Sequence record: MW822008.1
Strand: one strand, 5' to 3'
DNA length: 64,000 nt
Source: Escherichia phage BF17
Shown: one piece after another, positions 55,496 through 64,000 of the stretch
Layout: each line of letters starts with the position of its first letter
Position numbering within the stretch: position 1 is the stretch's first letter
Made by a program: the position numbers and the translations under genes
The notes under the pieces: generated by a model
Database searches by the model: none
Told to the model about the DNA's origin: nothing
The model's input: the letters and a program-made list of their open reading frames with translations, nothing else

Positions 55496-58400
55496 TTAAG
55501 CAGTACGTTGTGCAATGAACAAATCAGTAACTGAACTTACACCATCATAAATTACTTGGTAAATGGTCACGCTACCAGCAGTTTTGTTTAGTTCACCATC
55601 AACAACAGCATAAGTACCATCAGTTGTAAAGTTTCTGTTACCAGTTGTATCTTGTTTAACATAGATGTATACTGATGCAGCTTTACCACCACCAATTAGG
55701 CCAGTAATTGGAGCCAACGTGGTATCTTGGTCTAGAGTGATGAAGTATACGTTACTTGTACCATCTGGAGTCCATGTTCCGGTTGGAGCAATTACTGATG
55801 ATGTAACTTGAGTTGGGATTACATCATACTTTTTGGTAGTTACTGTTGTAGTAGTTAAGTTAGCATTAGTAGTGGTTAGTTCACCAGTTACTGTTACTGC
55901 CTTATCAAACACAGCATTTTCTTTAAATGATGAAGTTGCATTAACGGTTAGAACGTCAGCCGCTGCGTCACCTAATGTTACGTTACCATTCGCAGTTAGT
56001 GCTCCTGTTACTGCTAGTGTTCCACCTACTGTTGCGTTACCAGTAACGGATGCACTTGCAAGTGTAGCCAAACCTGATGTTGTAATTGTAGAAACGGTTG
56101 TTGCACCGAATCCAGCAGTACCAGTTGCAGAGATATTACCACCTACTGTTAGGTTACCAGCAGTGATACCAACAGTACCAGTGATGTTTGCACCACTTGA
56201 CATAGTTACTGCACCACCAAATGAACCAGTAGTAGTAACTTCTAAAGTATTACCTTTAAGCAATCCAGTTGCAGTGATAGAAGTACCAGCAGTAATTGAA
56301 GTGTTAGCAGTAATTGAAGTGCCAGCCGCTACGTTGTTAGTTGCAGTCAAAGACTTAACAGCTACATCGGAATCTGCTTGGTTCAATTGTGCATTTAGTA
56401 CACCAGTAACAGTAAAGTCACCGTTGTTTACAACGTTACCATTAACGATTAGGTTGTTGTTTTGTGAACCGACTTCACCAATTGTTGCAGAACTTGAAAT
56501 AATTGCCGCACCAGCAGTAATATTACCAGCAGAAGATAAAGAATCGGATGCTATTACTGCAAACGGTTCTAGTGTTTGTCCACCAACATCGATATCTGCG
56601 TTAATACCACCTTCAACACGTAGTTTACCAGCAATATAAGTGTCTGGCATAATCTGTACAGTTTCAGGCTGCTCACCTAATGGTGTACCAACTGTTAGAG
56701 TTGCACCAGTTTTAACAGAACCTAGTGTTGTTTGACCAACTACACCTAGTGTACCACCAACGGTTGCGTTGTTAGTTACTGCTAGACCAGTTCCTGAACC
56801 ATTCAAGGTTGCAGATGGAGCAGTTACTGCACCAGAAGTTAGTGTTCCACCAATTGTTGCTAAACCAGTTACACCTAATGTTCCACCAAGGGTAGTATTA
56901 CCTGTCGCATTTAATGTTTCAGATAGAGTTAGTGTTTTAGCAGAGATATCTGCACCAGTTAGATCTAAGCTACCAGGAGTTAGTGTTCCAACTACAGTTA
57001 CATCGTTACCAAATGTCGCAGCACCAGTAACACCAAGAGTAGTACTGAAAGAGCCACTTGTTGCAGATACACCAGAAGTTACGATAGAACCAAGTGATGC
57101 TTGACCAGTTACTCCTAATGTACCACCAATAGTTGCATTATTAGTTACTGCTAGTGCAGTACCAGTACCGCTTAGGGTTGCCGATGGAGCAGTTACTTCA
57201 CCAGTTACACCTAATGTTCCACCTACTGTTGTGTTACCACCAAAGGAAGCTGCACCATCAGAGTGAATAGTTTCAGATACTGACAAACTCTTAGCTGTAA
57301 TGTCAGCAGTTGTTAGGTCTAAACCACCTGCTGGTGTGAATACACCTTCAACAGTTACATCGTTGTCAAATGTAGCTGCACCAGTAACATCCAATGTAGA
57401 ACTAAATGTACCAGTACTACCAGATACAGCACCGGAAACCAATGAACCAACAGTTGTTACACCAGTAATATTCGCAAGACCAGTTACAGTCAATGGACCT
57501 GAAGATAATGAGCCAGTTACACCTAATGTTCCACCAACGGTCGCATTGTTAGTAACACCCAAACTACCAGCATTCACTGTGCCAGATGCAGTAACATCAG
57601 TAGTACTTACACCACCACTTAGTGTGCTTAGGCCAGTTGCAGTGATGGTTGAAGCAGTTGCAAGACTATTAGCAGAAATATCTGCACCAGTTAGGTCAAT
57701 ACCACCTTGTGGAACCAATTCACCTTCAACTGTTAGTTTCTGAACAGTACTATCACCAGATACATTTAAGGATGCAGCACTTAGTGCAGCTACTGTACTT
57801 TGACCAGTTACATTTAAAGTGGTGTTTACTGTAGTGTTGTTTAAAGTTGTATCACCGGATACTAATATAGCGTTGGTATTGATACCACCAGCATCAACTT
57901 GAATACCACCAGTGCTTACAGTTACTTTCTTGCCGATATTTACAATATCAGTTAGGGTAGTTGCACCAGTTACTGAAGCAGTACCTGCGACTGAAAGGTT
58001 TCCAGATACGGATGGGCTACCAGTTACAACACCAGTTGTTAGTACTAGGTTACCACCAACGGTAGTATTTCCAGAACTAGCAAGGGTAATTGCTGAAACA
58101 TTGGAAGAACTTAAATCAATTGAACCATTAACAACTAGGTCACCACCAATTGTAGCACCTTCTGTAGTACTTAGGGATTTAGAACTAATATCGGTAGTAC
58201 TTAGGTCGATAGAACCAGGAGTAACAGTGCCAGATACGGTCAAATCACCAGTAATAGAAGCACTTTTCGCAATGTCAATTGTATCATTAACAGAACTAAT
58301 ATTATTAACATTTAATATACCATTAATGTTTGCATTATTGTCAACACGTAAACCTTCACCAACTCCATTTAGTACAATACTTGTAGCTGTTACTTCAGTA

Positions 58401-61365: not shown

Positions 61366-64000
61366 TTATACACGTTGTGCAACGAAGGTATCAAACACAG
61401 TACTGAAACCATCATAGATTACTTGGATAATACTTGTTTGACCAACTACAGCACTTACTGTACCAGAAACTACAGAGTATGCACCACCGAAGGTGAAAGT
61501 AGTATCAGCAACAGATGGAGTTACATAGATATACACTGAACATGCTTGACCACTACCAATTAGACCCGCGATGGAATCCATTGTAACACTTTGGTCAAGA
61601 GTTAAGCGATATACGTTAGTAGTACCATCTGGTGTCCAAGTGCCACCTACAGCAGCAGTAGAAGCAGTAACACTAGCAGGGATAACAGAATATTTCTTAG
61701 TTACCATGTTGTTTGTAGTGAAGTTTGCAGTGGTGGTGTTAATAGAACCAGTCACTGTTAGGTTCTTATCAAATGTTGCGTTCTCTTTAAATGTAGATGT
61801 TGCATTTACAGTTAAAGTATCAGCAGCAGCATCACCAATCACAGTGTTACCATTTGCAGTTAATGTACCACCTACAGTTAGATCACCAGTTACAGATGCA
61901 CTTGCCATTGTAACAGCACCAGTTGTAGTAATGGTTGTTGCAGTTAGTGCTTGGAAGCTTGATTCTTCTGTTGCAATTACTGAACCATCAACATGCATGT
62001 CACCACCTGAAACATCAGCACCACCTAGTAGGCTTACTTTACCACCGAACGAACCAGTAGTCGTGATAACAAGAGAGTTACCATTCAATGCACCAGTTGC
62101 AGTGATAGAAGTACCAGCAGTAATTGAAGTACCAGCCGCTACGTTGTTAGTTGCAGTCAAAGACTTAACAGCTACATCGGAATCTGCTTGGTTCAATTGT
62201 GCATTTAGTACCCCAGTAACGGTGAAGTCACCATTAGTTACTACGTTACCATTAACAGTTAGGTTGTTGTTTTGTGAACCAACATCACCAATTGTTGCAG
62301 CTTTAGAAACGATGGTTGCACCAGAAGTAATGTTACCAACAGCAGATAGTGTTGCAGCAGCTTCAATTGCATATGGTTCTAGTGTTTGACCACTTACGTC
62401 GATTTCAGCGTTAATACCACCGATTACACGCAATTTACCAGCAATATAAGTATCTGGAATGATCTGTACAGTTTCAGGTTGTTCACCAACTGGAGTACCA
62501 ACAGTTAGGGTTGTGCCAGTTTTCACTGCACCAGTAGCTGTTAGTGAAGATACAGTAGTAGCACCAGTAACATCTAGAGTGCCAGTTACACCCAAATTAC
62601 CACCAACTGATGCGTTTGCAGTAGAAGTTAAACTTCCAACAGTTGCTAGACCAGATGCAGTCACAGTAGAAGTACTAACACCACCACTTAGAGTACTTAG
62701 GCCAGTTGCATTGATAGTTGTTGCAGTAGTTAGACTATTAGCAGTAATGTCTGCACCGCTTAGGTCAAGACCACCTTGTGGGATCAATTCACCTTGGACA
62801 GTTAGTTTCTGAACAGTACTGTCACCAGAAACTGTTAGTGATGTCGCAGATACACCTGCTAGAGTAGAAGCACCAGTTACACCTAAAGTTCCAGTAATGG
62901 AAGTTCCTGCTAGAGTAGAAGCACCAGAAACGTTAATTGTGTTAGTATTGATACCACCATCAACTACCTGAATACCACCAGTACTCACTGTTACTTTCTT
63001 ACCGATATTAACAATATCAGTTAGGTTAACAGCACCAGTTACACCAAGAGTTCCACCGATTGTTGTATTACCAGAGATAGCTGGGCTACCAGTCACAACA
63101 CCAGTTGTTAGTACTAGATCAGTTCCAACAGTAGTAGAACCAGTACTTGCTAGACTTGCAGCTACAAGGTTAGTTGCACTTAAGTCGAATGCACCATCTA
63201 CAGTTAGGTCACCAGCAATGTGTGCGTTACCTAGTGAATCAAGAGATTTAACGGTTACATCAGTATTGCTTAGGTCGATTGAACCAGCAGTTAGTGTACC
63301 AGATACAGCTAAATCACCAGTGATTGCAGTATTTTTTGCAATATTAAGAGAAGCAGCAGTTGTTGTTAAAGAACCAACAGTTGCAATGCCACCAACAGAT
63401 AATGCACCACCAACGTTTGCATCATTATCAACTTGAAGACCAAGGCCACTACCAGAAAATTCAGCACTAGTAGCAGTTACTTGAGTAGCTGATACACTTT
63501 GTAGTACACTGTTGCCAGTTGCATTAATAGTACCTGCATTTACTGTAAAGAGTGTTGCATCAGTTGAAGTAATTTTAGGTAACGAACTAGTATTGGTTGA
63601 ATCGGTAACGGTAATAACACCAGCACTTGTAATTGTCTCTGCACTTGCAAGAGATTTCACAGACACATCAGCAGCACTTAGGTCAAAAGTACCATCAACT
63701 ACTAAGTTTCCACCAACATTAACATCAGCAGTAGTAGTTAGTGAGTTTGCAGTAATATCAACAGTTGTTAGATCAAGACCACCTTCAGGTTTGAATACAC
63801 CAGTGACAGTTAGATCTTTTGCCGCGACAACATTACTTGCTAGATTTAGTGTACCAGCACCAGCAGCTTCAGCTTGTAAAGTTGGAACTGTTACAGAAGT
63901 TGTGATTGTTGCAGTACCAGAAGACAAACGCGAACCAGATACTACACCAGTACTAGTTAGTGTTCCTACTTTCGCTGCACCAGTAGTAGTTAGTGTTCCA
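61366..64000 (-). CDS. repetitive fibre protein, 5'-truncated by the window edge
   Basis: Reading frame stays open upstream of the TTG used by the ORF track (63927) through to position 64000; shares identical DNA segments and a conserved C-terminal domain with the 55496-61216 gene. Confidence 0.6.
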   Translation of the reverse strand, partial: GTLTTTGAAKVGTLTSTGVVSGSRLSSGTATITTSVTVPTLQAEAAGAGTLNLASNVVAAKDLTVTGVFKPEGGLDLTTVDITANSLTTTADVNVGGNLVVDGTFDLSAADVSVKSLASAETITSAGVITVTDSTNTSSLPKITSTDATLFTVNAGTINATGNSVLQSVSATQVTATSAEFSGSGLGLQVDNDANVGGALSVGGIATVGSLTTTAASLNIAKNTAITGDLAVSGTLTAGSIDLSNTDVTVKSLDSLGNAHIAGDLTVDGAFDLSATNLVAASLASTGSTTVGTDLVLTTGVVTGSPAISGNTTIGGTLGVTGAVNLTDIVNIGKKVTVSTGGIQVVDGGINTNTINVSGASTLAGTSITGTLGVTGASTLAGVSATSLTVSGDSTVQKLTVQGELIPQGGLDLSGADITANSLTTATTINATGLSTLSGGVSTSTVTASGLATVGSLTSTANASVGGNLGVTGTLDVTGATTVSSLTATGAVKTGTTLTVGTPVGEQPETVQIIPDTYIAGKLRVIGGINAEIDVSGQTLEPYAIEAAATLSAVGNITSGATIVSKAATIGDVGSQNNNLTVNGNVVTNGDFTVTGVLNAQLNQADSDVAVKSLTATNNVAAGTSITAGTSITATGALNGNSLVITTTGSFGGKVSLLGGADVSGGDMHVDGSVIATEESSFQALTATTITTTGAVTMASASVTGDLTVGGTLTANGNTVIGDAAADTLTVNATSTFKENATFDKNLTVTGSINTTTANFTTNNMVTKKYSVIPASVTASTAAVGGTWTPDGTTNVYRLTLDQSVTMDSIAGLIGSGQACSVYIYVTPSVADTTFTFGGAYSVVSGTVSAVVGQTSIIQVIYDGFSTVFDTFVAQRV

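Follow-up and report, generated by a model that had tools for sequence, protein, structure and literature searches.

A stretch of 64,000 nucleotides from Escherichia phage BF17 (sequence record MW822008.1), called the window here, ends in two adjacent paralogous genes for giant fibres, g1 and g2, whose shafts and pre-tip regions have probably been exchanging sequence by homologous recombination. Judged by sequence, the phage is an Asteriusvirus-like jumbo coliphage of the 121Q/PBECO4 group, and in megablast the region has an identity of 99.1% with phage Turkey3 and of 93-97% with WPEC3, WPEC5, CMSTMSU, EC.P1, Ecwhy_1 and fEgEco12. The two genes lie as follows.

55496 to 61216, minus strand: g1, giant fibre gene of 1906 amino acids (aa), an open reading frame (ORF) matching PHROG 4549
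61366 to 64000, minus strand: g2, second giant fibre gene, of which the 3' part (C-terminal 877 aa) is visible, an ORF cut by the window end

The full g2 gene measures 4917 bp (1638 aa) in Turkey3, and in the window phage its start lies beyond the window end. The g1 and g2 proteins align end to end at 49.7% aa identity and are thus full-length paralogs, and both match PHROG 4549, 'tail fiber protein', with E values of 5e-203 for g1 and 6e-64 for g2; scans of both proteins found no Pfam or NCBIfam family. In blastp comparisons with gp571 of phage 121Q, g1 aa 1-1800 align with gp571 aa 1-1824 at 48% aa identity, and g2 aa 1-1637 with gp571 aa 1-1839 at 49%. On full-length homology and profile match, both proteins can be assigned to the giant virion fibres of the gp571 type (PHROG 4549), g1 being the apparent positional and tip ortholog of 121Q gp571 and phAPEC6 Gp256. 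The latter protein (180 kDa) was detected in virions by mass spectrometry with 15 unique peptides (PMC7247149), a detection that concerns this ortholog only. No further g1/g2 paralog was found below position 55400 when the rest of the window was searched with g1 and g2 by tblastn.

One sign of exchange is a set of tracts in which the two genes are identical letter for letter, listed here with the smaller repeats that adjoin them.

56322 to 56401: tract A, g1 copy, 80 bp, exact match to g2
62132 to 62211: tract A, g2 copy, by haplotype comparison the likely recipient of g1-to-g2 conversion
58524 to 58594: tract B, g1 copy, 71 bp, exact match to g2, with flanks about 60-70% identical
63611 to 63681: tract B, g2 copy, exact match to g1
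59802 to 59875: tract C, g1 copy, 74 bp, identical to nt 1501-1574 of Turkey3 g2
56265 to 56302 (= 62093 to 62130): 38-bp exact match, the next longest, in the same block as tract A
56271 to 56326 in g1 and 62099 to 62136 in g2: 18-bp tandem microrepeat encoding the hexapeptide TSITAx, found with Tandem Repeats Finder (TRF)

Tracts A and B, in which a sequence-only reading of this DNA had seen recent gene conversion inside otherwise diverged genes, proved exact and maximal, neither of them being extendable, and their surroundings are indeed diverged, the codon-guided alignment of g1 with the visible part of g2 covering 2517 nt at 70.2% identity. Tract C had escaped that reading because its g2 partner lies past position 64000. 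The three tracts have no DNA similarity among themselves. The 38-bp match is kept apart from tract A by an 18-bp indel, which exists because the copy number of the TSITAx microrepeat differs between the genes (3.1 copies in g1 vs 2.1 in g2). In the g1 of the window phage and Turkey3, the extra microrepeat copy has become like the unit next to it; at this place, other g1 alleles are different.

Tracts of this length exceed what the background identity of the two genes would give by chance: when the positions of the mismatches were shuffled 20000 times, the longest identity run had a mean of 19.9 bp and a maximum of 45 bp, against the 80 and 71 bp observed. Outside the tracts, 61% of the codons that specify the same amino acid in g1 and g2 are identical, and inside them all are (26/26 in tract A and 23/23 in tract B), which corresponds to synonymous-site P values of about 3e-6 and 1e-5, respectively. 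Both the length of the tracts and their synonymous identity are those of gene conversion or ectopic exchange between paralogs.

Comparison with relatives adds a direction to this picture. Tract A is not under nucleotide-level constraint, since the 121Q ortholog differs there at about 19 nucleotides, most of the differences being synonymous. The g2 genes of WPEC3, EC.P1 and vB_Ec-M-J are unlike g1 at four sites of tract A, three of which have the 121Q state; in fEgEco12 g2 one of the four differences from g1 remains, and g2 of the window phage and Turkey3 has the g1 state at all four sites. With 121Q as outgroup, these unconverted, partly converted and converted g2 haplotypes point to conversion in the direction g1 to g2 in the window and Turkey3 lineages. 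For the block around tract A, identity is 86-90% between g1 and g2 and 76-80% between either of them and 121Q-type genes; in the tip segment, by contrast, g1 has 81% identity with 121Q and 64% with g2. Just downstream of this block, a patch of about 180 nt makes g2 84-93% g1-like in WPEC5, EC.P1, fEgEco12, Ecwhy_1 and vB_Ec-M-J, whereas g2 of the window phage, Turkey3 and WPEC3 is only 61-66% identical to g1 there; the g2 flanks of the patch are about 94-100% identical among all these phages. Moreover, the sets of tracts are isolate-specific, exact matches of 59 bp (g1 nt 4984) and 32-50 bp (nt 5098) being found only in WPEC5, EC.P1 and fEgEco12. Such different relationships in tract and flank, together with haplotypes that an outgroup puts in order, are what conversion between paralogs would be expected to leave.

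The earlier claim of gene conversion, widened here to homologous exchange, thus finds support in the synonymous-site test, the absence of nucleotide conservation in 121Q, the isolate haplotypes and the segment-wise relationships. The word 'recent' fits one tract and not the other. Tract A occurs at full length only in the window/Turkey3 lineage, whereas tract B (47-76 bp) is present in every two-gene relative examined except vB_Ec-M-J and, being common to all of these, predates the divergence of the isolates; EC.P1 g2 has three substitutions inside it. Turkey3, an independent isolate with its own assembly, has the same 80-bp and 71-bp tracts as the window phage.

Some observations on individual g2 genes stand beside these results. 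Within the part of g2 that is visible in the window, 34 of the 39 differences between the window phage and Turkey3 fall in one 520-nt segment, at about 62446-62965 (g2 nt 3318-3837), where the window allele is 99-99.8% identical to all other g2 genes and the Turkey3 allele stands apart at 93.6%, and the patch therefore appears to have been imported in Turkey3. In vB_Ec-M-J (OQ718158; 14117-19037 of locus L005), g2 is annotated as two coding sequences (1749 bp and 3150 bp); translated straight through, the span meets 51 stop codons, which would reflect either an inactivating frameshift or a sequencing error.

The shaft of the fibre is modular, and the number of modules is not constant. Three arrays of tandem units were defined in g1 by self-comparison of the DNA with BLAST and by a hidden Markov model of each unit, a blastp self-comparison of g1 having given the trivial hit only.

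59858 to 60880, minus strand: N array, two units of 170 aa (aa 113-283 and 283-453), 510-bp period
57887 to 59263, minus strand: M array, three units of about 150 aa (aa 652-1110), 450/480-bp period
56690 to 57406, minus strand: C array, two units of 119 aa (aa 1271-1509), 357-bp period, 72% aa identity

The N and M arrays bear out the two internal repeats described before, a tandem duplication of about 500 bp near the N-terminus, whose two 170-aa units are 74.5% identical in nucleotides and 68% in amino acids, and a unit of about 450 bp in three copies (57887-59263), which are 41-61% identical in amino acids. The C array is additional to these two and has no strong copy in g2, and g1 consequently carries an extra block of about 744 bp. 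At the DNA level, the internal repeat units are 64-81% identical; TRF reported only the 18-bp microrepeat and none of the 357-510-bp arrays, because their copies are too diverged. The N module is present in two copies in most genes, g2 included, and in three in JP4, and the M module in three copies in g1 and g2 and in four in 121Q, JP4 and vB_Ec-M-J g1; of the C module, g1 has two strong copies and g2 none, while 121Q has one or two and JP4 two or three. All three modules thus vary in copy number among relatives, with gene lengths of 4.9-6.4 kb, which supports the earlier proposal that the repeats are substrates for fibre variation. The comparison of fibre gene length across isolates, suggested earlier as a check, gave a range of 4887-6390 bp.

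JNE01 g2: 4887 bp
g2 of window-type phages: 4917 or 4935 bp
TH47 single gene: 4959 bp
UE-S1 gene: 5484 bp
121Q and phAPEC6 gene: 5526 bp
g1 of window-type phages: 5700 or 5721 bp
UB gene: 5880 bp
vB_Ec-M-J g1: 5967 bp
JNE01 g1: 6363 bp
JP4 gene: 6390 bp

In the record of one relative, the two genes appear as one. The TH47 record (MT446416; 9001-13959 of locus L008) has a single fibre gene of 1652 aa at the locus, which is g2 for about 4.15 kb and then g1 for the last 0.8 kb or so; in a scan of informative sites, g2 states extend to alignment position 562 and g1 states run from 571 to the end. The switch point has its equivalent in the window inside the block that g1 and g2 share.

56285 to 56294: equivalent of the TH47 g2-to-g1 switch point, inside the shared block, from the informative-site scan

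A gene of this structure is suggestive of a deletion by unequal homologous exchange between g2 and g1, being the product that such an exchange would be expected to give. The shared block is long enough to mediate a join, whichever origin the TH47 gene has, and a long-read check is advisable before a record with a single gene, like that of TH47, is taken for a natural variant.

The ends of the fibres behave differently from the pre-tip block, for the two tips are distinct and, as far as sequences tell, stably kept.

55499 to 55870, minus strand: g1 tip, C-terminal beta-sandwich domain, from an AlphaFold2 model and structure matches
61369 to 61740, minus strand: g2 tip, a distinct allele within the fold family of the g1 tip, to which it is 55% identical in amino acids and 64% in nucleotides

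Across roughly the final 500 nt, identity is 99-100% among g1 tips and likewise among g2 tips, and 64% between g1 and g2. Tips of the 121Q type are 81-82% identical in nucleotides to g1 and 65% to g2, and the g1 tip is 91% identical in amino acids to that of 121Q. The AlphaFold2 model of the g1 tip has a predicted local distance difference test score (pLDDT) of 78.7 and a predicted template modelling score (pTM) of 0.73 and was built from a shallow five-sequence alignment, which has only five rows because homolog searches gave few proteins: the word-indexed search gave at least 7 with the C-terminal 278 aa as query and 3 with the final 112 aa. The model has 210 BFVD matches at E<=0.001, the named ones being mostly phage tail fibres, including those of phiTE, KpS8 and Ro1; its matches to solved structures are weak. 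By tblastn, the tip domain occurs at fibre C-termini in 302 phage records. The model thus predicts for the C-terminal 110 aa or so the fold of the widespread beta-sandwich tips found at tail-fibre C-termini. The label PF26209, precomputed on database homologs of the tip, was not reproduced by the Pfam scan. A 184-aa fragment listed by NCBI as 'hypothetical protein, partial [Escherichia coli]' (P0001) is 99% identical to the g1 tip and is probably phage DNA within a bacterial assembly.

The distant Asteriusvirus JNE01 (OR670491, vB_EcoM_JNE01; 8110-14472 and 14611-18363 of locus L013) also has two giant fibre genes, of 2120 aa and 1628 aa, and its tips are 69% and 71% identical in amino acids to the g1 and g2 tips, respectively. 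Because these tips match those of g1 and g2, the arrangement with two tips is older than the Turkey3-like clade, and one copy may have been lost in phages that have a single gene, 121Q among them. Two distinct tips would be consistent with two binding specificities. The JNE01 g1 gene has a head like that of 121Q. The notion that 121Q-type genes are old fusions of a g2 head with a g1 tip was rejected, their N-terminal likeness to g2 being explained by a deletion of about 53 aa in the g1 of the window clade.

The mechanism proposed for all of this would work as follows. Each fibre would consist of a shaft built from the three kinds of tandem modules and would end in a small beta-sandwich tip. 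Sequence would pass between the shafts and pre-tip regions of g1 and g2 by homologous recombination, either as non-reciprocal conversion within one genome or as exchange between co-infecting genomes, and would leave behind short patches of perfect identity amid sequence that is about 70% identical. The patches lie over a junction motif that recurs and is conserved, D-[VLI]-x-x-K-S-[LV], where amino acid conservation at module junctions would keep enough nucleotide identity to start an in-frame exchange, and exchange at a junction would yield structurally viable products. The same homology, together with the tandem modules, would allow unequal exchange to alter the number of modules and, at times, to fuse the genes. 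In this scheme we infer the trimeric structure of the fibres, receptor binding by the tips, and the place and time of exchange; the paralogy, the tracts with their statistics, the patch boundaries that differ by isolate, the variation in module number and the junction in the TH47 record are observed. The motif occurs eight times in g1, one occurrence lying in each of the three exact tracts; the probability of such an overlap by chance is about 0.08 per tract and about 6e-4 for the three jointly.

Several points weigh against exchange between the paralogs as the explanation, or narrow what it can claim. The exchange is deduced from assembled sequences, and the pattern would fit conversion within a genome and ectopic exchange between co-infecting relatives alike. 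Tract B appears to be old or repeatedly renewed and is not demonstrably recent. The link between tracts and motif is a lead and not a result, the pattern having been defined post hoc, and the TH47 fusion, whose record is marked UNVERIFIED, may be an assembly collapse at the block shared by g1 and g2.

The last point belongs to a broader doubt, namely that cross-mapped reads, or collapsed or duplicated contigs, produced false identities and copy numbers during assembly or polishing. The paralogs do share blocks of about 120 bp at >=95% identity that short k-mers can bridge, and TH47 shows just the fusion that a collapse would give. An artefact is nevertheless very improbable as a general explanation, since an independently isolated and assembled phage, Turkey3, repeats both long tracts, tract B recurs in all two-gene relatives but vB_Ec-M-J, and the lengths agree across seven assemblies made independently in different countries, for g1 (5700-5721 bp) as for g2 (4917-4935 bp). 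The internal units, at 64-81% DNA identity, cannot collapse. The warning that the repeats are a hazard for assembly consequently holds for one place only, the block shared by the paralogs, which is the only plausible collapse point; for the internal units it does not, these being too diverged and the seven assemblies being in agreement. It is similarly hard to credit that the tracts are kept for a nucleotide signal needed by both genes, be it an internal promoter, an RNA structure or a protein site. All three tracts do overlap the same short peptide motif, a loose likeness at the protein level, but the peptide is the same in 121Q, phAPEC6 and JP4 despite numerous synonymous changes in its codons (the block being 76-80% identical in nucleotides), g2 differs from g1 inside tract A in three isolates and inside tract B in EC.P1 with no sign of harm, the tracts lack mutual DNA similarity, and promoter-like and terminator-like matches in the region are no commoner than in shuffled sequence.

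It is also conceivable, and considered unlikely, that the pair arose by a fairly recent tandem duplication, the tracts being leftovers of the original identity and the rest having been replaced piece by piece with imported phage DNA. In favour of this, the segment at aa 423-628 is 75-90% identical between g1 and g2 and only 18-27% identical to 121Q, Turkey3 g2 carries its divergent 520-nt patch (93.6%, vs >=99% in all other g2 genes), and the variable patch is present as a third allele in WPEC3 g2. However, the two tips of JNE01 indicate an old duplication, over which perfect relics of 70-80 bp would not last; in tract A, 121Q and three g2 lineages agree at three of the four sites, so that the g1 states in window and Turkey3 g2 are the derived ones and speak for conversion, not for a relic; and the g1-like patch in g2 of EC.P1 and its kin has a donor in the same genome. 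Programmed diversification by a diversity-generating retroelement or by an invertase switch of the Gin/Cin/Min type was rejected on the grounds that the repeats are direct and perfectly identical; a single weak inverted repeat (31 nt, 71% complementary) was found in the region, and no search for a reverse transcriptase or invertase gene was made.

Exchange between the resident paralogs, the reading preferred here, can be taken further, with less conviction. It is rather doubtful that g1 and g2 form a built-in cassette system in which exchange is frequent and is channelled to the motif junctions, and which supplies two kinds of whisker. Each shaft module and each tip may then be bounded by D-[VLI]-x-x-K-S-[LV], and, if this were true, in-frame swaps, gain and loss of modules and fusions such as that of TH47 would retune the length and specificity of the fibres. 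Scaling from T4 gp34, proteins of 1600-2100 aa would be expected to give fibres of about 100 nm. The tail of the related phage CBB bears flexible 'hairy whiskers' of about 119 nm and six short baseplate fibres of about 29 nm (PMC5259590, PMC7247149), and phAPEC6 has the same two kinds of structure, whiskers and short baseplate fibres (PMC7247149). By analogy, the estimate of about 100 nm may fit the whiskers better than the baseplate fibres.

The sequences between and ahead of the genes suggest that each of them is a separate unit.

61263 to 61285, minus strand: 23-nt motif ACTAAATATA[A/T]GTATATTAACAA, upstream of g1 and found also upstream of g2
61323 to 61347, minus strand: terminator-like hairpin with a T run after it, lying past the g2 stop codon and ahead of the upstream motif of g1

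The 23-nt motif is followed by a GGAGGG ribosome-binding site ahead of both g1 and g2 (the second locus being at 18788-18904 of L001). It is promoter-like and may be a candidate consensus of phage late promoters; 121Q has a looser version of it. Because the two genes have the same motif and ribosome-binding site, the duplication took in the region upstream as well, and each gene would seem to be transcribed as a unit of its own.

The two genes stand between a DUF4376 structural protein and a cluster of virion-protein and colanidase tailspike genes. The same gene order was found at this locus in Turkey3, WPEC3, EC.P1, fEgEco12, vB_Ec-M-J, 121Q, JP4, UE-S1 and UB; the order of the window locus is kept in eight relatives. 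Two genes adjoin the fibre genes in all relatives: one for a 654-aa structural protein (52595-54559, minus strand; PHROG 14293), which has a fibre motif of about 50 aa in common with g1 and g2 (41-48% identity), and one for a 259-aa protein (54650-55429, minus strand) that contains a DUF4376 domain and weakly matches a tail-fibre PHROG. Both proteins may be part of the same fibre apparatus as g1 and g2. Long antisense ORFs (up to 545 aa) lie on the plus strand at 55833-56639, 57912-59549 and 61571-62389, in a genome of 36% G+C, and probably result incidentally from the repetitive, T/G/S/A/V-rich codon usage of the fibre genes.

Several records name such proteins after T4 gp34, 'long tail fiber proximal subunit'. 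No T4 gp34 homology appeared in the Pfam and NCBIfam scans or in phmmer against the PDB at E<=0.1, a direct alignment with gp34 not having been made, and the sole match of phmmer against all PDB sequences at this threshold was the phiTE fibre. The PDB contains fragments of T4 gp34. The name is best read as a general term for a long fibre.

The phiTE match, a putative tail fibre protein (from a Pectobacterium phage of the Vequintavirinae; PDB 9CUY/9MJN chain g; K9L5R6), found with a phmmer E value of 1.4e-29, resembles g1 in an N-type module, the junction-motif region and the C-terminal tip, whose predicted fold matches that of the g1 tip (Foldseek E 9e-12, template modelling score 0.75). It differs in its length, 793 aa against 1906 in g1, and has no tandem M or C arrays. 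The phiTE protein belongs to a baseplate fibre network, in which only N-terminal fibre residues were modelled (PMC11972413), and its parts homologous to g1 probably have no experimental coordinates. The closer counterparts, 121Q gp571 and phAPEC6 Gp256, share with g1 the locus, full-length homology (48% aa identity), the three module types and a tip of 91% aa identity. In contrast to the two genes with distinct tips of the window phage, 121Q, phAPEC6, JP4, UE-S1 and UB have one gene at the locus; 121Q also has four M units, where g1 has three, and one or two C units, where g1 has two.

Tail-fibre genes that are mosaic, recombine and contain repeated modules are classically known from tailed phages. 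In T-even and P2/Mu-type fibres (gp37/gp38 and related adhesins), segments are shuffled at short conserved motifs, giving chimeras and changes of length. The window phage is like these in that short conserved motifs flank variable segments, and unlike them in that sequence is exchanged between two paralogs, each of 1.6-1.9 thousand aa, that reside in the same genome, and that the junction motif is D-[VLI]-x-x-K-S-[LV]. Concerted evolution in tandem paralogs of cellular genomes offers another parallel, with its sharp tracts, identical synonymous sites, discordance between tract and flank, and polymorphic haplotypes. Unlike there, the setting here is a lytic phage genome, in which co-infection offers an extra ectopic route, and the tracts are short, with exact runs of 47-120 bp and a patch of about 180 bp. 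One proposed route of genome expansion in jumbo phages is the tandem duplication of genes (PMC7247149). Literature searches on Asteriusvirus and on paralog-exchange terms found no description of the two-gene arrangement, the exchange between paralogs or the TH47 fusion.

The case is a well-documented instance of the way in which phage fibres usually evolve and leaves the established picture of mosaic fibres unchanged; its value is that of a clean, outgroup-ordered example of paralog conversion in a lytic phage. Asteriusviruses are being isolated as therapy candidates against avian pathogenic (APEC), uropathogenic (UPEC) and O157 strains of E. coli. The natural in-frame junctions defined here could serve the engineering of chimeric fibres, and the two stable tips, the recombining shafts and pre-tip regions and the variable number of modules are candidates for the source of differences in host range or adsorption among these phages.

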